A model generated the notes under the pieces. The model had not been told where the DNA came from. It saw only the letters and a program-made list of their open reading frames with translations, and did no database searches. This document shows, piece after piece, positions 31,435 to 62,842 of a stretch of DNA of 64,000 bases. The DNA lies in IMG/VR virus record IMGVR_UViG_3300046028_006919, positions 12,475 through 76,474 of that record, one strand, 5' to 3'. The translations under genes and the position numbers were made by a program. Numbering within the stretch: position 1 is the stretch's first letter; the number at the start of each line of letters is the position of its first letter. Source of the stretch: a virus.

Positions 31435-31553
31435 TGCCGAGGACTGGATTCGAACCAGCAATAGTACCATACTCACCAACTTTCGTTGACTTCAAGGATT
31501 CGAACCTCATCTCCCGTTTTCAGACGGGTGGTTTACCATTTCCCCACCTCGGC
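31435..31553 (-). ncRNA. chimeric tRNA-like RNA (Leu-type acceptor and D arm, two T-arms)
   Basis: GCCGAGG/CCTCGGC-A acceptor, TGGTAAA D-loop, CCCGT-CTGAAA-ACGGG hairpin, internal GAGG-TTCGAAT-CCTT and terminal GCTGG-TTCGAAT-CCAGT. Confidence 0.7.
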
Positions 31554-33562: not shown

Positions 33563-35563
33563 CTAAAGATTAATCAAAGATAAATTTATGTTCTTTTTTT
33601 CTATATCAACACTTGAAACAATCACATGAACCATATCACCAAGTCTAATTTTATGACCTGTGTTGTAACCTTTTATACAATGATTGTTGGTATCTGCTTG
33701 ATATGTGTCACCGTTGATATCCGATAGTTTTATGAAACCATCACATTTGTTCTCCAGTATTTCAACAAACAAACCATAATCGGTTACAGAACTAACAATA
33801 CCTTGAAACACTTTGCCAATATTATCACTCATATAAACACACTGCATGTATTTGATTGAATCTCTTTCAGCTTTAGCAGATTTAACCTCACGCTCAGACA
33901 AGTGTTGACATCTGCTTTCAAGTTTCTCAATCTTAGGTAGCGTTGGTTTATTCTCCAAGTACAACCCTAACAATCTGTGTGTTATAACGTCTGGATAACG
34001 TCTAATAGGACTGGTAAAATGGCTGTAGTCTTTGAACCCAAGACCATAGTGACCAATGTTTTTGGTTGAATAGTTTGCTTTCTGCATTGTTCTCACAACC
34101 AGATTGTTAATCATATCTTCCTCGGCAGTACCTCTTACGTCCGATAACAATTGGTTAAGTGTTCTGGTTGTTTCCTCTGGCGTATCAATACGAATTTCAT
34201 ATCCAAATTGTGATATAAAGTCTTTAAGGTTAGCCAACTTCTCGTCGTTAGGTTTGTCATGCGCTCTGTTTACGTTAGGCAACCCTCGGCTGTTGATGTA
34301 TTGAGCAACGTGTCTGTTAGCCAACAACATAAACTCTTCGATAAGTTTATTTGAATCCTTCGCAACCTTGAAGTGAATACCAACTGGTTTGTTGCTTTCA
34401 TCCAACTTGAACTTAACCTCTTGTTTATCAAACGAAATGGAACCTCTTTTGGAACGTTCTTTACGCATCATCTTAGCATATCTATCCAAAGCTTTGATTG
34501 ATTCAGCTAACGCATTAGCTTCAAACCATTTTGATTCATCTGTTAGTTTTTCTTTCAAACCACATTTATCAATTACTTCTTCGTTACATAAATCATCTTT
34601 TTTGCAACTCGCAGCTTCAATAATAGCTTGAGCTTCTTCATAACTAAATCTATGGTTAGAGTTTATAACAGTTTTACCAAACCATTCATCAACTACCTTA
34701 CCTTGTTTATTTATTCTAAAGATTGCTGAGAAACATAGCTTGTCCTCATTAGGTCTCAACGAACACAATCCGTTAGACAAGTTCTCTGGCAGCATCGGAA
34801 CGCATCTGTCAACTAGATACACACTGGTACCTCTGGCAAACGCTTCTTTGTCTAACTCTGTTTCAGGTCTTAAGTAGTGTGATACGTCAGCAATATGAAT
34901 ACCAACAAACAACTCACCGTCAACCCATTCAACACTCAACGCATCATCAAAGTCTTTGGCGTCCGCTGGGTCAATGGTAAACGTAAGAACATCACGCATA
35001 TCTCTACGCTTATCGATTTCAGCTTGTGTTATCTCTGTTGGGATAGCTCTAGCTTCTGCCAACACATCTTCTTCAAAGTCGTATGGTAAACCATACTCTT
35101 CTAGAATACTGTGTATTTCAGTTTCATGTTCACCAGCATCACCTAACACTCGAATGACTTCTCCGTTAGGGTTTTTAGCATCATCTTTCCATTCAGTTAA
35201 TCTAACCACAACCTTTTGTCCATCTAAACCTCCATTACGCGCGCTCAACGGAATAAAAAAGTCAATTGATAGTTTGTTACTATCTGGAATAAAAAACGCA
35301 AATTTAGGGCTTATTTGAAGCGTACCTACGAATTCTGTTCTGAACCGTTCAACAATTTCAATTACCTCACCTTCCATTGCGCGACCAACACCTTCTTTTA
35401 TGCGTATTTTAACTTTATCCAAGTGCAAACCCTTATTGGTGTTAGACTTGTGAATGTATATGTCTTTTGGTAGGTTTGGGTCCGTCAAGTATGCTGAACC
35501 ACTAGCGTTAACGCTTATTCTACCTTCTAATATATCATTAATTTTTATTTTTTCTTCTTTCAT
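33563..35563 (-). CDS. rnr: ribonuclease R
   Basis: TIDPADAKDFDDALS, HIADVS, RGTSVY, HFTSPIRRYPD and C-terminal S1 domain. Confidence 0.95.
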   Translation of the reverse strand: MKEEKIKINDILEGRISVNASGSAYLTDPNLPKDIYIHKSNTNKGLHLDKVKIRIKEGVGRAMEGEVIEIVERFRTEFVGTLQISPKFAFFIPDSNKLSIDFFIPLSARNGGLDGQKVVVRLTEWKDDAKNPNGEVIRVLGDAGEHETEIHSILEEYGLPYDFEEDVLAEARAIPTEITQAEIDKRRDMRDVLTFTIDPADAKDFDDALSVEWVDGELFVGIHIADVSHYLRPETELDKEAFARGTSVYLVDRCVPMLPENLSNGLCSLRPNEDKLCFSAIFRINKQGKVVDEWFGKTVINSNHRFSYEEAQAIIEAASCKKDDLCNEEVIDKCGLKEKLTDESKWFEANALAESIKALDRYAKMMRKERSKRGSISFDKQEVKFKLDESNKPVGIHFKVAKDSNKLIEEFMLLANRHVAQYINSRGLPNVNRAHDKPNDEKLANLKDFISQFGYEIRIDTPEETTRTLNQLLSDVRGTAEEDMINNLVVRTMQKANYSTKNIGHYGLGFKDYSHFTSPIRRYPDVITHRLLGLYLENKPTLPKIEKLESRCQHLSEREVKSAKAERDSIKYMQCVYMSDNIGKVFQGIVSSVTDYGLFVEILENKCDGFIKLSDINGDTYQADTNNHCIKGYNTGHKIRLGDMVHVIVSSVDIEKKNINLSLINL

Positions 35564-49366: not shown

Positions 49367-49612
49367 TTATTTTTTTGTTTTTATTAATGTTGGTTTAAAA
49401 ATTAATCTTAGTCCGAACTCTTCGGAACCATTAGTGAGCACATCAATCTCATGTCTTGATAAAATATTGTTTTCAACAAATTCAGTCATTAGAACATATT
49501 TGTTGCAAACTGCTTTATATAAAACCATTAGTTTATCATTTTCCATTTTAAAAAATATATCATCACCATGTTGCGTTTTCTTAACAATTGGTTTTAACAT
49601 GTTTTTACCCAT
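49367..49612 (-). CDS. hypothetical protein
   Basis: 81-aa ORF in operon context. Confidence 0.5.
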   Translation of the reverse strand: MGKNMLKPIVKKTQHGDDIFFKMENDKLMVLYKAVCNKYVLMTEFVENNILSRHEIDVLTNGSEEFGLRLIFKPTLIKTKK

Positions 49613-51170
49613 TTAATTTAGCTCGTTCTCTTACTTCTTCAAAGGTCCATTCTTTAAGGATTTCACCATTTCTGAACACTTCAACCAGTTCGTCGGTTAC
49701 ACTATCGAAATCAGCATCCATCGATGTAACAGTTCTGTATGTACCATCTTCATTCTTAACCAATTTAAGTTTACCTTGTTTTGATTTTTTAAATGATTTG
49801 GTAATGTTGCCATCAGCATCCATTTCAGTTGGTGATTTAACAATGTTTCTTTCTTCACCATTAACGATTGCAAAACACGCTTTGGTGGCGAAGTTTTGTG
49901 TGTCGCGGTTGATGTCAGCTTGTAACAATTTACCACCCATACCCAACGCTAAGTTCTCTGGTGAAATACCTTCAAAGTCTAACATTTCATAGATTTCTTT
50001 AATTGATTCTAAGTTCACACCATCACCTTGGATAACACGCACTTGTGGTGGCAATACTTTGTAACCTTTATCATTCACAGTATATCCGAATTTATCGAAC
50101 AATATGTGGAAAATCTCTCTTAATGAATTGATTACGTGACCTGAGTCAGGTCTGATAACCAATTGATTACCTGGCTCACTTGGTCGTGATAATATAAGGT
50201 CAATAAGGTCTTGACCCCAATATTGTGAACATGCTCTAAAAATGTTGTAAGAATCAGACACACAAGCCACCAAACCAGTTGGGAACATGGTCAACACTTT
50301 TCTCATCATTTCCAATTCACCCTCTTCACCTTTAAGGGTCATGATAGAGTGTTCTGTTGCTGGAATAGATAAACCATAAATGATTTCTGTGTTGTAAATT
50401 TCTCTAATCATCTTAGAAGCAATTACAGTATCTGAACCCTTGAAATTCACCAAGTGCGCTGAACCACCAATCTTAGCTGATTGAACACTTGATACGCCAC
50501 GGAACCCAAAGTCATTCAACACAAAGTCAACCAAGAACTCACGTAACGCAGTGTCATAAGACGTACATTTTTGGAACGCAGAATCAACAATCTTTCTTAC
50601 TTCTCTAGAAAGAGTAGCAACCGTAATAGGGTACCATACTTGAAGCAAGATTGACTCTAAGAAGTTTGTCAACCAAGCACATTCTGGGTCAAGACTTTCA
50701 ATTGTAAACAACACGTTTTTGGTTTCAACGACAGTCCCTTCTGGAACAGCTTTGATACTGATAGGTAATTTACCATCATATTTGTCAACGATATAATCAA
50801 ACTTGCTTCTGTCAAATACATCATCACGACCGAAGACACCTAATTTGGTACCTAAGTATTCGTAAGCTTCATCAACTTCTTCTTTTACGATTGCAATACC
50901 CTCAAGGTATTGTTTAAGGATAATTTGTAGACCGTAAAATACAGTGGTATTAAATTTACCACCTCTAGATTCCAAATATGAAATCATTTTGGTCATTTCA
51001 ACACCGTAGAATCTGTGGTGTGAATATTTGTAAGCATCGCTACACAAGATAAGGTTATCTGGTTTAACAAGTACTTTTGATAATACTTTTTGGATTGATT
51101 TGATATCATTCAAATCAGCGTTGGCTAACGCTCTCTCTAGTCTTCTGACTAAGTTTCTTTGTATACTCAT
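49605..51170 (-). CDS. nadV: nicotinamide phosphoribosyltransferase (NAMPT/NadV)
   Basis: SDAYKYSH, DFGFRG, GSDT, PATEHS, VSDSY, IRPDSG, IQGDG, GGKLLQ and KKSKQG motifs. Confidence 0.92.
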   Translation of the reverse strand: MSIQRNLVRRLERALANADLNDIKSIQKVLSKVLVKPDNLILCSDAYKYSHHRFYGVEMTKMISYLESRGGKFNTTVFYGLQIILKQYLEGIAIVKEEVDEAYEYLGTKLGVFGRDDVFDRSKFDYIVDKYDGKLPISIKAVPEGTVVETKNVLFTIESLDPECAWLTNFLESILLQVWYPITVATLSREVRKIVDSAFQKCTSYDTALREFLVDFVLNDFGFRGVSSVQSAKIGGSAHLVNFKGSDTVIASKMIREIYNTEIIYGLSIPATEHSIMTLKGEEGELEMMRKVLTMFPTGLVACVSDSYNIFRACSQYWGQDLIDLILSRPSEPGNQLVIRPDSGHVINSLREIFHILFDKFGYTVNDKGYKVLPPQVRVIQGDGVNLESIKEIYEMLDFEGISPENLALGMGGKLLQADINRDTQNFATKACFAIVNGEERNIVKSPTEMDADGNITKSFKKSKQGKLKLVKNEDGTYRTVTSMDADFDSVTDELVEVFRNGEILKEWTFEEVRERAKLNG

Positions 51171-51172
51171 AA

Positions 51173-51796
51173 TTATTTTATTTTTACGTTTTCAAAATCA
51201 ACATGTAAGTCAGTAGTAAATTCTTTCCCATATCTGTTTTTAACAACCTTGATATAAACATTTGGTTCTTTTTTCCAAAACATAAGTTTGTTCAACAATC
51301 TAACAAAAAATGTTTTTTCTTTTGATTCTTTTCGAGTAACAACTGCAAATATATCCGTAGAATATAACGGAACCTTGTTGGTTTCAACCACACCTTCTTG
51401 TGGTTTAAATCGGTTTAATTGAATGCTAGTAATAACAGCAACACCATAATGTTTAGACAATTCAGATATTTTTTCAAATTGATTTGGTTTAACTTGATAA
51501 TCAACCACTATTAAATCATAATCCTTTTTGAAATAAGGTTCCAAATCAGTTTCATTTAAACCAACTGACAAAACTGTTAGTTTTCCATTAAACTCCTTTG
51601 TACCTAAACATCTATTAAATCTTTTAAGAATATGCATTGCTTTGGTTTCAGTCAAAAACAATATCTTTTTACCATCCGAATAACATTCAGCTGCAAGTAT
51701 TGTTAATAATGTTGATTTACCGCTACCAAAATATGAAGCAAATGTCACTCTTGGATTGGTGTCTAGGTCTATGTTTAAAAGTTCTTTTAGTTCCAT
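51173..51796 (-). CDS. RecA/DnaB-fold P-loop NTPase-like protein
   Basis: GSGKST, IVVDY, QLNR and KNRYG motifs. Confidence 0.7.
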   Translation of the reverse strand: MELKELLNIDLDTNPRVTFASYFGSGKSTLLTILAAECYSDGKKILFLTETKAMHILKRFNRCLGTKEFNGKLTVLSVGLNETDLEPYFKKDYDLIVVDYQVKPNQFEKISELSKHYGVAVITSIQLNRFKPQEGVVETNKVPLYSTDIFAVVTRKESKEKTFFVRLLNKLMFWKKEPNVYIKVVKNRYGKEFTTDLHVDFENVKIK

Positions 51797-51797
51797 T

Positions 51798-52778
51798 TTA
51801 TTTAATTAAATTGTCGGTTACAACTTTTTGTAAGAATATTTTCATTAACTCAACATGCTCTGGAACAATCTTATCTTCAAGTGTCCACGTGTATTTGATT
51901 GGTGGGACGTGACCATCACCAAGACTTGGTTCTTGTGTATGTTCAAATAAATCAGACAAGTCAAACCATTTAACTTCGGCAATGTCATCAGAAGCTTCTG
52001 GCATACCCATTTGGTCCCATTCATAGAATAAGAACAAACTGGTCATGATACCAGAATCTTCTCTTTCATAACGCCAATCTACTATTTGTTTGCTAGCGAT
52101 ATACGTAGGTTTTAAACCAGAAAGTTTGGTTTCCTCGTATAATTCTCTACGAGCGGCTGTTTCATAACAATCATCAGTTCTATCTACAAAACCACCAACG
52201 AACCTAAACTTATCTTCGGCTGGTTTTCTAGCCAAAAGTATCTGACCATCATAGTTTGCAACTACGATATCAACTGTTGGGTAAGTTACTGGACGTTGCT
52301 TGGTGATACCATAGATAACACCCGCTCTAAATTCATCTGAATCTAAAACTTCACTAGCAGCATTTGCTCTTATGTCAGTCGCATTATGAGATTCAATAGC
52401 TTCTAACATTTGAGTTTTATGTTTACCATGATAGTGAGCCATAAAAGAATCTCGACTACCATACAATATGGCTTCTTTTTCAGGGAATATTGTTGATAAT
52501 ACATTGTCAACATTCTCAGACCATTTTTCGTCGCTCCTATGGTCTGGTAACGCCATTATGATTGCTTCTGGGCATTTCTCTTGAATTAGCTTTCTACGGG
52601 TAGCAAAGTCTAAAGGGTTTCTTTTAGTGTTTTGAATTCTTGGTATACCCAAAAATATAACTACATTTGAATGCATTTCAGAAATTTTATCTAAAACACC
52701 TACATGACCTTCATGTAAATATGGTGTTTGAAAACGCCCAATCATAACACCCACTTCATTTTTTTTAATATCTTCCAT
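51798..52778 (-). CDS. bifunctional NMN adenylyltransferase / Nudix ADP-ribose pyrophosphatase (NadM-Nudix, NatV-like)
   Basis: GRFQ...HEGH, NPL, NATDIR; Nudix box GGFVD...ETAARRELYEET; ASDD. Confidence 0.9.
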   Translation of the reverse strand: MEDIKKNEVGVMIGRFQTPYLHEGHVGVLDKISEMHSNVVIFLGIPRIQNTKRNPLDFATRRKLIQEKCPEAIIMALPDHRSDEKWSENVDNVLSTIFPEKEAILYGSRDSFMAHYHGKHKTQMLEAIESHNATDIRANAASEVLDSDEFRAGVIYGITKQRPVTYPTVDIVVANYDGQILLARKPAEDKFRFVGGFVDRTDDCYETAARRELYEETKLSGLKPTYIASKQIVDWRYEREDSGIMTSLFLFYEWDQMGMPEASDDIAEVKWFDLSDLFEHTQEPSLGDGHVPPIKYTWTLEDKIVPEHVELMKIFLQKVVTDNLIK

Positions 52779-52848
52779 TATTAATATTTTTTTACAATGC
52801 AAATATACATAAAAAAACCCAATAAAAAAATTTATTGGGTATTTTTTT

Positions 52849-58959: not shown

Positions 58960-59430
58960 TTAAATTTTTTTTATCATTTTTTTATTTTTAACTGCAAATA
59001 CGAATTCATTAGGAAATCCAGCATCTTCACCATATATCGCATCACATTCGTTAAACGCATTAATAAACTTATTTACAGTTTCTTTAGGGAAAGCTAATGC
59101 AAACCTAGATAATGGTTCTTTATATTTTGATTCTATAGATTCCTCACCTATAACGAAAATACCTTGAATCTTATTATAGAAATTACCATTTATACCAGTT
59201 TTATCTTTATATAATTTGTTCCAATATTCTAGGTTTAATATTTTAGTGTTATCAGTATTGATTAAAAATTTATTTTCATAATCACCAAAATGTGAAGCAT
59301 ATTCTTTGTTAACAGCAAAATATTCTATTGGAGAATATTCTGAGTCATAGTCTTTATCCAAATATCTATACACTGTAACCAAACTTTCATGAATATTCAT
59401 GATTTTATTAATCATTTCTCTAATTTCCAT
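58960..59430 (-). CDS. hypothetical protein, possibly ADP-ribosyltransferase-like fold
   Basis: VYR...YFA...YA..FG...D...E pattern; weak. Confidence 0.45.
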   Translation of the reverse strand: MEIREMINKIMNIHESLVTVYRYLDKDYDSEYSPIEYFAVNKEYASHFGDYENKFLINTDNTKILNLEYWNKLYKDKTGINGNFYNKIQGIFVIGEESIESKYKEPLSRFALAFPKETVNKFINAFNECDAIYGEDAGFPNEFVFAVKNKKMIKKI

Positions 59431-59470
59431 AGATGTATTTACAATTTATTATAAATATCCCGTTAAAAAC

Positions 59471-59498
59471 AAAAAAACCTATACATAGTATAGGTTTT
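59471..59498 (-). terminator. terminator after the RNase P RNA
   Basis: AAAACCTATAC/GTATAGGTTTT hairpin plus U-tract. Confidence 0.8.
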
Positions 59499-59502
59499 CA
59501 GT

Positions 59503-59758
59503 ACAAAGTGAGCTTAGCCGCGATTCTGTTTTATCTCATCATTTATCTTCGCCACTACCCGTCTATCGTAGCAATCCAAGTTCCCTTGCTAAGACTGTAT
59601 GTGTTGCACCCCGTGTTGCGGTAGTAGTAACGAATGTTCAGATGTTCACTAAAGTATTTAAACTTAGGTTCCAGCCAACCGCTGCTTACTAATTCTCCTA
59701 CCTCTTGGAGAGATGTCGCGAACTTCCTCTGTTGCCAGCGATGAGTTCTCTGCTTTGT
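59503..59758 (-). ncRNA. rnpB: compact RNase P RNA
   Basis: P1 ACAAAG../..CTTTGT; P2 CTCATC/GATGAG; P3 CTG-GCAA-CAG; CR-I GAGGAAGTTCGCGA; P4 AGT(T)CGCGA/TCGCGGCT with bulged U; CR-IV AGATAAAT; CR-V ACAGAA. Confidence 0.85.
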
Positions 59759-59762
59759 TTTG

Positions 59763-59880
59763 TGGGGGCGGCTGGAATTGCACCAACGTTTTTCAAATTT
59801 ACAGTTTGGTTTTTGTGAATTAATTTGCTGCAAACATTCTTCATAAACAGAATGTGTTGTTCTAACATTTTAACACCCCC
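59763..59880 (-). ncRNA. tRNA-Tyr(GUA)-like RNA with the D arm replaced by an approximately 60-nt CAGCAA module
   Basis: GGGGGTG/CGCCCCC-A acceptor, CAAA-CTGTAAA-TTTG anticodon arm, AAAAC variable loop, GTTGG-TGCAATT-CCAGC T arm. Confidence 0.7.
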
Positions 59881-59892
59881 TTGTATTTTAAT

Positions 59893-60609
59893 TTATTCAC
59901 CAATTGAAATCCAATCTAGTTTTTCTCTTTTTTGCGAAAGGTTACCAGCACCATGAGTTCCTCTTAGGATAGCGTTTGATTTGTGATATTCAAACCATTT
60001 ATTTTTTAATTCATCACTTTTAAACGTTGAAAAAATACCGTTAATCTCTACCAACTCAATATCTTTAAAATTAATATTGTTTTCTTTTAAAAAATTAAAA
60101 ACTAAAACATCGAATGTCAATGGTGGTGTGTGGTCTATATGACATGTTTTTTTAGAAAAATTTATTCCTAATATCGGACATGTTAAATATGTTTTTTTTA
60201 CAAATATTTTTTCTCTAAACTCATTTATTTGTGATTTAACAATAAATCTCATACTTTTTTTTACATCAATACTATTTTCACTACCAACTGTTTTACCACT
60301 ATTAATATAACCAATAGTTTTATGATAAGAAAAATCGATTACACTCCCATCAACTCTATTTATTTGAAAATGTGGGTATTTAGCTAATTTATTTGTTAAA
60401 TCATCTCTATGATATTCAATTGAAATTGATTCAATTCCAGCCCCTACTTTTTTATCATACTCTATATGATATTTCAATAATTCACTTACGTCTTTAAAAT
60501 CACTATCATTTAAAGGTTTACTAACCTCTCTATTATTTAAAATAGATGCAAAATACTCTGTTATGTTTTTTTTACTCTTAAAAAATTGACCATTAATAAG
60601 ATACCCCAT
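59893..60609 (-). CDS. DCL/DUF3223 domain protein with HNH-like C-terminus
   Basis: LLKYH...KKVGAGI...DGSVIDFSYHK; CPILG...HIDH..P..F...N. Confidence 0.7.
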   Translation of the reverse strand: MGYLINGQFFKSKKNITEYFASILNNREVSKPLNDSDFKDVSELLKYHIEYDKKVGAGIESISIEYHRDDLTNKLAKYPHFQINRVDGSVIDFSYHKTIGYINSGKTVGSENSIDVKKSMRFIVKSQINEFREKIFVKKTYLTCPILGINFSKKTCHIDHTPPLTFDVLVFNFLKENNINFKDIELVEINGIFSTFKSDELKNKWFEYHKSNAILRGTHGAGNLSQKREKLDWISIGE

Positions 60610-60628
60610 ATTTATTATTTTTTATTAG

Positions 60629-60701
60629 AGCGGATGACGGGATTCGAACCCGCGACCTCTGCCTTGGCAAGGCAGCGCTCAACCAGCCGAGCTCCATCCG
60701 C
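60629..60701 (-). tRNA. tRNA-Gly(GCC)
   Basis: GCGGATG/CATCCGC-T; CTGCC-TTGCCAA-GGCAG; GCGGG-TTCGAAT-CCCGT. Confidence 0.95.
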
Positions 60702-60780
60702 ATACATGCCTCTCTCTGCATCCGTCACCTTATCCTGTGTTATTTAATTTCGGACGTTTAAGGTCACACCGACGTACTTC

Positions 60781-61587
60781 TTACCAATACCACCATCTAG
60801 CTTCGTTTCTGGTTCTGTATTTAAACTCGTAAAAGTCTTGACTCCAAGCGCTAGCACAAGCCCAGTTGGTCCAATCGCTATCAGTGACAAAATCCCTTTC
60901 AGTCATCTCATTACCTTGTTCTTTATGCCACTCGTGAGAGTCGTTGATAAAATCAGTATTGAGGTTTTTGATAAGAGCCATTTTGTCTTTGCGTCTGTTA
61001 GCTTTAGTTATGCGTTTTAAAAAATTAGAATAACCGTTTTCATTCCATGGTTTAATCTTATCTTCTAAAACCCATTTTTGGTCTTTAACAAAAGCTCGTT
61101 GGCTTTCCAGCTCACCATCAACCACTTTACGGTGGGTGATATAGCTATTTTTAATCTTCATTACCAAATAATAATCAGGGACATAAGGAACATAATAAAC
61201 ATATTCGTTACCCCAATTGTATTCGGTTCTTTTGTGAAGATGCTCTTGAACCCATGGCAAGAAACCATCGTATTCTTTTTGAGTCAATCTTCTAAATTTT
61301 GGTCTATTATCACTAACTTTACCTCTTTTGTTTTTGGTGTAAAATTCTGGTAATCTTGACCAAGGTTCTGATGCAAAATTATCAATAAAGTATTGATATA
61401 ACCAAGCTACTCTATCTTCTCGTTTTGCAACATCTTCTCTTAGCGTTAAGTAAGCATTGAAACCGTGATGTACTGGTTTTTCAAGCTCAACATAACCTAA
61501 ATTTTTGATAGCGGCATCAAGCTCACTTTCTCTTTCTCTTAACGCTAATAAGCGTTTGTAATCTTTGTGTTTTGTGTTTTTACTCAT
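60781..61587 (-). CDS. basic hypothetical protein of Bacteroidota type
   Basis: 268 aa; LGYVELEKPVHHGF...LREDV motif. Confidence 0.7.
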   Translation of the reverse strand: MSKNTKHKDYKRLLALRERESELDAAIKNLGYVELEKPVHHGFNAYLTLREDVAKREDRVAWLYQYFIDNFASEPWSRLPEFYTKNKRGKVSDNRPKFRRLTQKEYDGFLPWVQEHLHKRTEYNWGNEYVYYVPYVPDYYLVMKIKNSYITHRKVVDGELESQRAFVKDQKWVLEDKIKPWNENGYSNFLKRITKANRRKDKMALIKNLNTDFINDSHEWHKEQGNEMTERDFVTDSDWTNWACASAWSQDFYEFKYRTRNEARWWYW

Positions 61588-61649
61588 CGTTCTCGGTATA
61601 GGGAATTGACCCTTAGAACCTCGAACCTTTTAAAATTGCAATCATAATA

Positions 61650-61913
61650 CTATAAATTTATTTTACCTATTATTGTAAAACCCTTAGGTTTCCATTTTTC
61701 TTTTTCTTTGTCAGTTATCGTGTTGCCATTTTTACCAACATGAAATTTGTAACAACTTTTGCATTTATACGCCACTACCTTGAATTTTCTATCTGGTAAT
61801 GCGTTTACACTCTTAGCATGTTTGATAGCTTGTTCAAGCATATCAAATGGTTTCTTTGGTTTGTCAACCAACTGTCCATTTATTCTACTTACGATTTGAG
61901 TTGTACAATCCAT
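61650..61913 (-). CDS. small zinc-finger protein
   Basis: AYKCKSCYKFHVG; own promoter. Confidence 0.65.
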   Translation of the reverse strand: MDCTTQIVSRINGQLVDKPKKPFDMLEQAIKHAKSVNALPDRKFKVVAYKCKSCYKFHVGKNGNTITDKEKEKWKPKGFTIIGKINL

Positions 61914-61954
61914 AATTTGTAATTTATTAGAGTACAAATATACGAACTATTATT

Positions 61955-62143
61955 TTACTTACCAAACTTTTCTTCAGTTATTTTTCCAGAAACTTTTGAA
62001 AATTGATTAATAGTAAGACGATGTACTTCAAACGCTTCAGTTATTGCTACATAAGCATCTTCTAAATCACTTGCGTAAGTAACTATATCCAACTCTGGAA
62101 TAGTAATCTTAATAAAACCGTCTATACATTTTTCAATTAACAT
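61955..62143 (-). CDS. small HicB-N-like protein
   Basis: IPELDIVTYASDLEDAYVAITEA resembles the HicB partial RNase H fold. Confidence 0.5.
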   Translation of the reverse strand: MLIEKCIDGFIKITIPELDIVTYASDLEDAYVAITEAFEVHRLTINQFSKVSGKITEEKFGK

Positions 62144-62159
62144 TGTTTCTAAATTTTAG

Positions 62160-62231
62160 AGCACATAGACGGAACTGACCCGACAACTGAGGGTTACAAA
62201 TCCCCTATTTTTCCTGTTAAACTATACGTGC
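62160..62231 (-). tRNA. tRNA-Thr(TGT), divergent
   Basis: GCACGTA/TATGTGC-T; GGGGA-TTTGTAA-CCCTC; atypical T loop GTCAGTT. Confidence 0.75.
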
Positions 62232-62239
62232 ATATTTCG

Positions 62240-62321
62240 TGGGGCACACAGGATTCGAACCTGCTCAGCTTACGCACCGCTTTTACAGAGCGGCCCAACT
62301 CTCCTACGTTGGCGGTACCCC
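62240..62321 (-). tRNA. tRNA-Tyr(GTA)
   Basis: GGGGTAC/GTGCCCC-A; CCGCT-CTGTAAA-AGCGG; long variable arm; GCAGG-TTCGAAT-CCTGT. Confidence 0.9.
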
Positions 62322-62326
62322 AAATA

Positions 62327-62387
62327 GAACAGAGAGATATTGTTTCAAATTAAAAGTTTGTTTTTGTTAATTGCTGAAATCTCTCTT
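62327..62387 (-). ncRNA. small CAGCAA-module RNA displaying a tRNA-Lys(UUU)-like anticodon stem-loop
   Basis: AGAGAGAT/ATCTCTCT closing stem enclosing TTCAGCAATTAACAAAAA-CAAA-CTTTTAA-TTTG; homologous to 59794-59843. Confidence 0.65.
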
Positions 62388-62394
62388 TATCTTG

Positions 62395-62465
62395 TTAGGG
62401 TATAAGGAATTGAACCTTATCAGCAACTGTCAAAGAGTTGTATGCAACCATTACATCTTACCCCA
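62395..62465 (-). tRNA. tRNA-Gln(TTG)
   Basis: TGGGGTA/TACCCTA-A; CAACT-CTTTGAC-AGTTG; TAAGG-TTCAATT-CCTTA. Confidence 0.9.
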
Positions 62466-62468
62466 AAA

Positions 62469-62659
62469 TTTCTAATTCTACGCTTCCCACTTTTCAGGTG
62501 CTATGTATTAGTAACAGTCTGTCTTCGAGCGACTTACGGGATTCGAACCCGTCCTATTCCTGATTGGAAGTCAGGTGCCATGCCAGCTAGGCGAAAGTCG
62601 CAATTTTCTAATTCTACGCTTCGAGTTCTTCACGGTCTTCTATGAATTAGTAACAGTCT
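62469..62659 (-). repeat. two copies (62469-62520, 62605-62659) of AGACTGTTACTAAT-n-CATAG-variable-GAAGCGTAGAATTAGAAA
   Basis: direct repeat with constant ends and a variable core, each copy just 3' of a tRNA. Confidence 0.85.
62528..62601 (-). tRNA. tRNA-Gly(TCC)
   Basis: GCGACTT/AAGTCGC-T; CCTGA-CTTCCAA-TCAGG; ACGGG-TTCGAAT-CCCGT. Confidence 0.9.
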
Positions 62660-62667
62660 CTTCTCAG

Positions 62668-62754
62668 TCTAAAGGGTGGGATTCGAACCCACGGTGTTAT
62701 CTCTAACTCTTGCGTCCAAGGCAAGCGAGTCTAGCCATCTGCTCTAACCTCTAG
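62668..62754 (-). tRNA. tRNA-Pro(TGG) with a long variable arm
   Basis: CTAGAGG/CCTTTAG-A; CTTGC-CTTGGAC-GCAAG; variable GTTA-GAGA-TAAC; GTGGG-TTCGAAT-CCCAC. Confidence 0.85.
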
Positions 62755-62770
62755 TTTATATATTATTTTG

Positions 62771-62842
62771 TGACCCCAGAGAATTTTGAAATCTCGACTC
62801 CTCCGTTAAAAGCGGAGTGCTCTGCCTCTGAGCTATGAGGTC
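62771..62842 (-). tRNA. tRNA-Lys(TTT)
   Basis: GACCTCA/TGGGGTC-A; GCTC/GAGC D stem; CTCCG-CTTTTAA-CGGAG. Confidence 0.9.

Follow-up and report, generated by a model that had tools for sequence, protein, structure and literature searches.

A phage-encoded homologue of bacterial type A RNase P RNA with a much reduced specificity domain

RNase P RNA is the ribozyme that trims new tRNAs, and to our knowledge it is regarded as a universal cellular ribozyme. The bacterial type A form, represented by the M1 RNA of Escherichia coli (gene rnpB, Rfam family RF00010), is ~350-400 nt long, and the GGU of bacterial loop L15 reads the 3′-CCA of the tRNA by pairing with it. The type B form (RF00011) is marked by P5.1, P10.1, and P15.1 and by the lack of P6 and of P16-P17. 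In archaea, the type T enzyme, a minimal form known from Pyrobaculum and other Thermoproteaceae, is active with most of its specificity domain (S-domain) missing (PMC7191817), while the bacterial catalytic domain (C-domain) alone cleaves pre-tRNA with reduced efficiency (PMC5839562). The C-domain-only RNA of E. coli is a laboratory construct. In the literature searched (full text, the P Finder paper included), no report of a phage- or virus-encoded RNase P RNA was found, and the literature searched yielded no description of a bacterial-type RNase P RNA that naturally lacks the S-domain.

The RNA compared here with these systems is encoded in a 64,000-nt stretch of DNA (the window), taken from a 76,474-base IMG/VR virus record rated ~22% complete by CheckV. 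The stretch occurs in lake-water metagenomes, and part of it in freshwater metatranscriptome runs. It has phage-type genes, with PHROG matches, among others, to a nuclease, to a DNA-transfer protein, and to enzymes of NAD salvage. The last of these, at 49605-52802 (minus strand), are a nicotinamide phosphoribosyltransferase (521 aa) and a cytidylyltransferase-NUDIX fusion (334 aa); NAD+ salvage genes are known from large phages. An RNase II/R-family exoribonuclease of 666 aa with RNB, CSD2, and S1 domains is encoded at 33563-35563 (minus strand, E 1e-110), and this phage 3′-5′ RNA exonuclease could join in the trimming of tRNA or other RNA 3′ ends.

The RNase P RNA gene is on the minus strand at 59758-59503 (256 nt), and the reported ends are exactly the outer ends of P1. 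It occupies a 460-nt gap between the open reading frames 59893-60609 and 58960-59430, where the RNA has a G+C content of 43-46% and the flanks one of 23-30%. The former frame encodes a DUF3223-family protein of 238 aa (minus strand) with a C-terminal C-x-HIDH, and lies between the tRNA-Gly(GCC) gene at 60628-60701 and the tRNA-like/RNase P unit. The setting is a tRNA island: seven canonical tRNAs are found in the window, and directly upstream of the RNA gene is a 118-nt tRNA-like element (59763-59880) that was not called by ARAGORN. In this element the acceptor stem is GGGGGUG/CGCCCCC, a T arm and an anticodon-like hairpin are present, ~60 nt take the place of the D arm, and the 3′ end abuts P1. 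The seven tRNA genes at 60628-62842 (minus strand), like the tRNA-like element, end in the discriminator, a C, and then a sequence other than CA; since at most one C of CCA is encoded in the tRNA genes of the window, a CCA-adding enzyme is needed. Several further odd tRNA-like elements occur in the same genome. A 119-nt tRNA match at 31435-31553 (minus strand, 43 bits) has an insert of ~49 nt in the variable region with a second T-arm-like GGUUCGAAUCC. The features of the locus, in order of transcription, are as follows.

59763..59880, minus strand: tRNA-like element (7-bp acceptor stem, T arm), directly upstream of the RNase P RNA
59474..59761, minus strand: probable primary or processed transcript, 288 nt (a hint only, from one contig in one run)
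59503..59758, minus strand: reduced RNase P RNA, bounded by the two strands of P1 (all helices mapped, covarying in the family)
59758-59753/59508-59503, minus strand: P1, ACAAAG/CUUUGU (helix mapping)
59750-59748/59512-59510, minus strand: continuation of P1, GAG/CUC (helix mapping)
59745-59740/59540-59535, minus strand: P2, CUCAUC/GAUGAG (mapped, covariation)
59738-59729, minus strand: P3, 3-bp hairpin CUG-GCAA-CAG with a GCAA loop (mapped, covariation)
59720..59729, minus strand: CR-I GAGGAAGUUC, J3/4 and the start of P4 (invariant in the family, aligned with E. coli rnpB)
59716..59724, minus strand: P4 5′ strand AG(U)UCGCGA with bulged U 59722 (8/8 pairs in 26/26 sequences)
59714-59712, minus strand: P5 5′ strand AUC (mapped, covariation)
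59709-59705, minus strand: P6 5′ strand UCCAA (pseudoknot with UUGGA 59579-59575 in L17)
59620..59702, minus strand: specificity-domain remnant of P7, asymmetric loop, Px, and insert (mapped, no Rfam match)
59601..59610, minus strand: P5 3′ strand GGU, J5/15 GCAA, and P15 5′ strand CAC (invariant or covarying in the family)
59553..59594, minus strand: P16 UCU/AGA, P17 GCAA/UUGC, L17, L15, and P15 3′ strand GUG (mapped, covariation)
59561-59556, minus strand: L15 CGGGUA (G-G-U invariant in the family)
59548-59539, minus strand: CR-IV AGAUAAAUGA in J18/2 (invariant columns, aligned with E. coli AGAUGAAUGA)
59524..59548, minus strand: the whole CR-IV/P2/J2/4 block, with J2/4 AUAAAACAGAA and its ACAGAA at 59529-59524 (aligned with E. 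coli ...ACAGAA)
59516..59523, minus strand: P4 3′ strand UCGCGGCU, CR-V (mapped, covariation)
59473..59499, minus strand: intrinsic terminator hairpin and U-run (from the sequence)

All elements of the catalytic domain are present in canonical order: P1-P5, the P6 pseudoknot, P15-P16-P17, CR-I, CR-IV, and CR-V. An initial annotation, made from the letters of the window, had named P1, P2, the 3-bp P3, P4 with its bulged U, and the motifs GGUGCAA, AGAUAAAUGA, and ACAGAA, and each of these lies on the minus strand where that reading had placed it; the terminator that it saw after the RNA is intrinsic (59499-59473). It had missed the P6 pseudoknot, the full P15-P16-P17 arm with L15 CGGGUA, and the P7-closed remnant of the S-domain. 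The CR-I of the window copy, GAGGAAGUUC, differs from the bacterial consensus GAGGAAAGUCC by having one A fewer and a U.G pair beside the bulged U. P4 is formed by AG(U)UCGCGA and UCGCGGCU, P5 by AUC and GGU, extendable to 6 bp, and P6 by UCCAA(G) in J5/7 with (C)UUGGA in the P17 loop. The GGUGCAA motif lies at 59610-59604, and we take an A of the J5/15 GCAA to correspond to A248 of E. coli. The combined pattern CR-I...CR-IV...ACAGAA occurs once in the window against 0.00 expected (100 shuffles); a chance origin of the combined motif is excluded. Single-sequence minimum free energy folding was unremarkable (z = -1.25), as expected of a pseudoknotted RNA, and was therefore set aside.

Between the 3′ strand of P15 and AGAUAAAUGA there are just four nucleotides, GCGA, so P18 is absent, in agreement with the initial remark that there was no room for it; some relatives do have a hairpin at the P18 position. 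Of the P8-P14 specificity domain only P7, an asymmetric loop, and one variable helix/hairpin are left. P7 (GGUAG/CUACC) encloses the loop, which is conserved (5′ GA; 3′ GUUACUA), and inside it are the helix Px, formed by GAAU and AUUC, and an insert of ~56 nt that is lineage-specific and contains two small hairpins. The earlier failure to find the usual CR-II and CR-III was borne out: neither could be aligned in the window RNA with E. coli rnpB, and no S-domain motifs were in register. Variants in RNA-library contigs fall at 59678-59680, the predicted hairpin loop of the insert, and at 59635, where a U-A pair of Px becomes U-G. Besides the missing P18 and the insert, the features particular to the window copy are the 3-bp P3, an enlarged L17, and the direct fusion to an atypical tRNA-like element.

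Set beside the described systems, the RNA is closest to type A. The two are alike in the order and pairing of P1-P5, the P6/L17 pseudoknot, and P15-P16-P17, as well as in L15 GGU, J5/15 GCAA, CR-I/IV/V, and the bulged-U P4. Unlike type A, the phage RNA has 256 nt instead of ~350-400, lacks P18, P8/P9, P10-P14, and CR-II/CR-III, has the CR-I sequence GAGGAAGUUC, and is virus-encoded, without a cognate rnpA, and below every Rfam threshold. It differs from type B in having P6 and P16-P17 and in giving no match to RF00011. The resemblance to type T is in the losses only: type T is archaeal, has several archaeal proteins, and has another core sequence, whereas the phage RNA, which has P6, P15-17, and L15 GGU, descends from bacterial type A. 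The C-domain-only RNA of E. coli was made in the laboratory, while the phage RNA is natural and maintained, with P7 and a conserved internal loop.

No RNase P family was reported by Rfam cmscan of the whole window at gathering thresholds, or at E<=10 on 651 nt and on the 268-nt RNA alone, the archaeal models included. RF00010 and RF00011 gave no match over the full record, the window copy does not reach the RF00010 gathering threshold (100 bits), and blastn of the intergenic region against 50,697 GenBank phage records found no match. The initial annotation had looked to covariance models for a hit and had named the lack of one as counting against an RNase P RNA. The family-level evidence outweighs this silence of Rfam.

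Relatives were sought in IMG/VR with the degenerate CR-IV/CR-V motif AGATRAATGA-N6-24-ACAGAA-NNNN-GGCT, which gave 45 loci. About 34 distinct sequences also have GAGGAAG(U/C)UC (CR-I) 117-275 nt upstream, and in these the bases after CR-I are complementary to the NNNN of CR-V, giving a covarying P4; the pairs CGCGA/UCGCG, CAGAA/UUCUG, CUGGA/UCCAG, CACGA/UCGUG, CGCAG/CUGCG, and CCGGU/ACCGG are examples. The GAGGAAGUUC form of CR-I was missing from 10 of the 45. Five with the variant GAGGAAGCUC (L002, L010, L015, L027, and L035) were retained. L018, L023, L026, L033, L041, and L042 were dropped as chance motif matches within coding sequence.

Twenty-six reduced members were aligned with MAFFT, and pairs of the structure defined on the window copy were counted. 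Paired cells amount to 88.8%, against 64.6% in column shuffles, none of 500 of which reached the observed value, and pairing falls to 35-47% when the partners are slid by 1-3 columns. Double-sided changes occur at 36 of the 45 pairs. The description of P4 as atypical but fully paired holds for the family, since all eight pairs form in every one of the 26 members, with compensatory changes at four of them; P5, P7, P15, and P16 are each 94-96% paired with nearly every pair covarying, and P16 and P17 covary. P6 was scored sequence by sequence, because in the window copy L17 is longer and was misplaced by MAFFT; in 25 of 26 members J5/7 pairs with L17 over at least 5 bp, with about a dozen different sequences. 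The bulged U, ACAGAA, J5/15 GCAA, and L15 GGU are invariant. The compensatory changes throughout show selection for the fold of the RNase P catalytic domain, both pseudoknots included.

Larger relatives connect the reduced RNAs to bona fide RNase P RNA. L007 scores 168 bits with RF00010 (RNaseP_bact_a) and L008, of only 263 nt, 132 bits, both over the full model and above threshold, and both have the GAGGAAGUUC form of CR-I found in the window copy. Against the annotated E. coli rnpB, the UCGC linker after P2, CR-I, CR-IV, CR-V, and the GGCUA tail are in register in both, and L008 and E. coli are almost the same from J5/15 through P15. A covariance model of 97 positions, built from the 3′ halves of 20 reduced members, gave 91 bits for the window copy, 41 for L007, and 25 for L008. 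It also found E. coli rnpB at the homologous place within the annotated gene (24 bits, E 0.003); decoys score like E. coli (L026, picked for having the same motifs, reached 23.5 bits), so the E. coli match rests mostly on CR-IV/CR-V. The window RNA is a homologue of RNase P RNA, its structure is conserved under selection, and it is located in a phage; it is one more member of an unpublished phage RNase P RNA family. The initial proposal of a minimal catalytic RNA is upheld as to the catalytic core by the covariation, the Rfam-positive intermediates, and the detection of E. coli rnpB, but the RNA is not wholly minimal, as a remnant of the S-domain (P7, loop, and hairpin) is kept.

Two loci found in the same scan have unusual arrangements. 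At L024:775-1068 (minus strand), the RNase P RNA gene is apparently circularly permuted and is without recognition by Rfam: the order starts with CR-IV, the P2 3′ strand, CR-V, and the P4 3′ strand and goes on with the P2 5′ strand, P3, CR-I, and the rest. A 7-nt linker takes the place of P1, the ends AAAGCCUU ... AAGGCUUU can pair, and tRNA genes lie on both sides; part of the body presumably resembles type B RNase P RNA. A complete phage genome of 488 kb has two RNase P-like 3′ halves on the minus strand, ~400 nt apart: L021:1890-1989, with 70 bits in the 3′-half model of the reduced family, and L021:2382-2511, with 46 bits; they may be tandem gene copies.

Among the carriers of the family are three genomes with direct terminal repeats (488, 357, and 305 kb) and a record of 385 kb that is rated 95% complete. 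Their loci are inside or beside tRNA arrays, with tmRNA, GOLLD RNA, and a group I intron in the same islands. GOLLD RNA and tmRNA (standard and permuted) matches are at L032:7888-8305, L038:10629-11095, L038:5067-5412, L020:1261-1644, and L012:7151-7485, and a group I intron is at L038:12532-12733. A search for the most reduced form (CR-I to CR-IV spacing of 115-145 nt) gave one match in 185,579 cellular genomes. This match, L047:324-560 (minus strand), comes from a Candidatus Roizmanbacteria MAG, on a 3-kb contig made up of the RNA and an array of 13 tRNA genes; the contig may be phage DNA or may hint at a host.

The initial annotation had seen no RnpA gene in the window, and a profile search with PF00825 found none in the whole 76-kb record. 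The same search was negative for five large carrier phages, of which four reach a completeness of 90% or more, and positive for the controls, 10 bacteria. For the RNA to function in a holoenzyme, its protein would have to come from the host or be an unrecognized phage protein.

RNA contigs from four libraries, belonging to four studies, contain the gene, and over the 59100-60200 examined all pieces fall within 59462-59788. The flanking reading frames (59100-59430 and 59893-60200) have no RNA contigs, an absence that is not taken as evidence that the RNA is discrete and stable. Two contigs, 59603-59788 and 59613-59777, span the junction of the tRNA-like element and the RNase P RNA, which fits co-transcription with the upstream element. 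In an X23 contig, a terminator-like piece is separated by 46 other letters from the stretch that runs from 59777 downward, and so stands 46 nt upstream of the gene. A head-to-tail joint of 59761 with 59474, a step back of 288, is present in a single metatranscriptome contig, from run X21; 59761 is 2 nt past the discriminator of the tRNA-like element, and 59474 is in the U-run of the terminator. The joint would fit a 288-nt RNA with ligated ends, and a related strain with a tandem duplication of the DNA would explain it just as simply. For RNase P RNA, circular isoforms have been described in a preprint (10.1101/2025.06.30.662392).

The best explanation of the locus, to which a probability of about 70% is given, is a working RNase P RNA that depends on host RnpA and serves the tRNA island of the phage. 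Homology is demonstrated, and it is the catalytic activity, the partnership with RnpA, and the substrates that we infer. As a virus-borne homologue of type A RNase P RNA that has lost P18 and nearly the whole S-domain, the RNA is predicted to fold into the canonical P4-centred active site. It would borrow the RnpA protein of the host, a step suggested by the absence of a phage rnpA, and would cleave the 5′ leaders of the phage's own pre-tRNAs, probably with the acceptor stem, 3′ end, and leader as the main points of grip in place of the tRNA elbow. Cleavage of pre-tRNA by the C-domain-only E. coli RNA makes such a mode of action chemically feasible. The 5′ end of the RNA would probably be made by 3′ processing of the upstream tRNA-like element, and the phage would gain its own tRNA-maturation capacity for the island.

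A more adventurous version, rather unlikely on present evidence, holds that loss of the elbow-reading domain is adaptive, relaxing or shifting specificity towards RNAs that the host enzyme handles poorly, and that the RNA may also act as a covalently closed 288-nt circle. The candidate RNAs would then include the D-arm-less or otherwise aberrant tRNA-like RNAs of this genome, one of them fused directly to the 5′ end of the RNase P RNA. Going further, the RNA could be a specialized RNase P whose substrates are aberrant tRNA-like or non-tRNA phage RNAs and not ordinary tRNAs. The reduction of the S-domain to P7, one loop, and one hairpin would suit such a role, as would the position of the gene directly behind an odd D-arm-less tRNA-like element, with several more in the genome, and the RNA-library contigs that bridge the junction. 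However, the reduced form is family-wide in phages with canonical neighbouring tRNAs, seven canonical tRNAs are present in the window itself, and L15 GGU and J5/15 are kept as in enzymes that act on ordinary pre-tRNAs, leaving this explanation unlikely. The initial suggestion that the reduction is suited to the atypical tRNAs of this phage is not favoured for the same reason: equally reduced relatives sit among normal tRNAs.

The RNA might instead be no enzyme, and block host tRNA maturation as a decoy or regulator that titrates host RnpA or competes with the host RNase P RNA. With no phage RnpA, any bound protein would be that of the host, and the most conserved regions (J18/2, J2/4, and P2-P3) are RnpA contacts in bacterial holoenzymes. 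The invariant residues, however, are those of catalysis and docking (the bulged U of P4, ACAGAA, the A of J5/15, and L15 GGU), not those that bind protein; P6 and P15-17 are maintained through compensatory changes, and the gene sits in tRNA arrays that need processing, all of which makes a decoy distinctly unlikely. A decaying, functionless relic of a captured host rnpB gene, as the large deletions relative to type A and the lack of an Rfam match might suggest, is highly improbable, since dozens of diverged copies keep every core helix by compensatory substitutions, complete phage genomes carry the gene, and a terminator is present.

A widespread phage family of RNase P RNAs of 200-290 nt would mean that large phages supply, besides tRNAs, some of the apparatus for their maturation. 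In evolution, the minimal ribozyme known to biochemists from deletion constructs would have been reached repeatedly, in genes that are missed by standard annotation. The family may offer compact natural scaffolds for substrate recognition without an S-domain and for the use of a host protein by a phage RNA.
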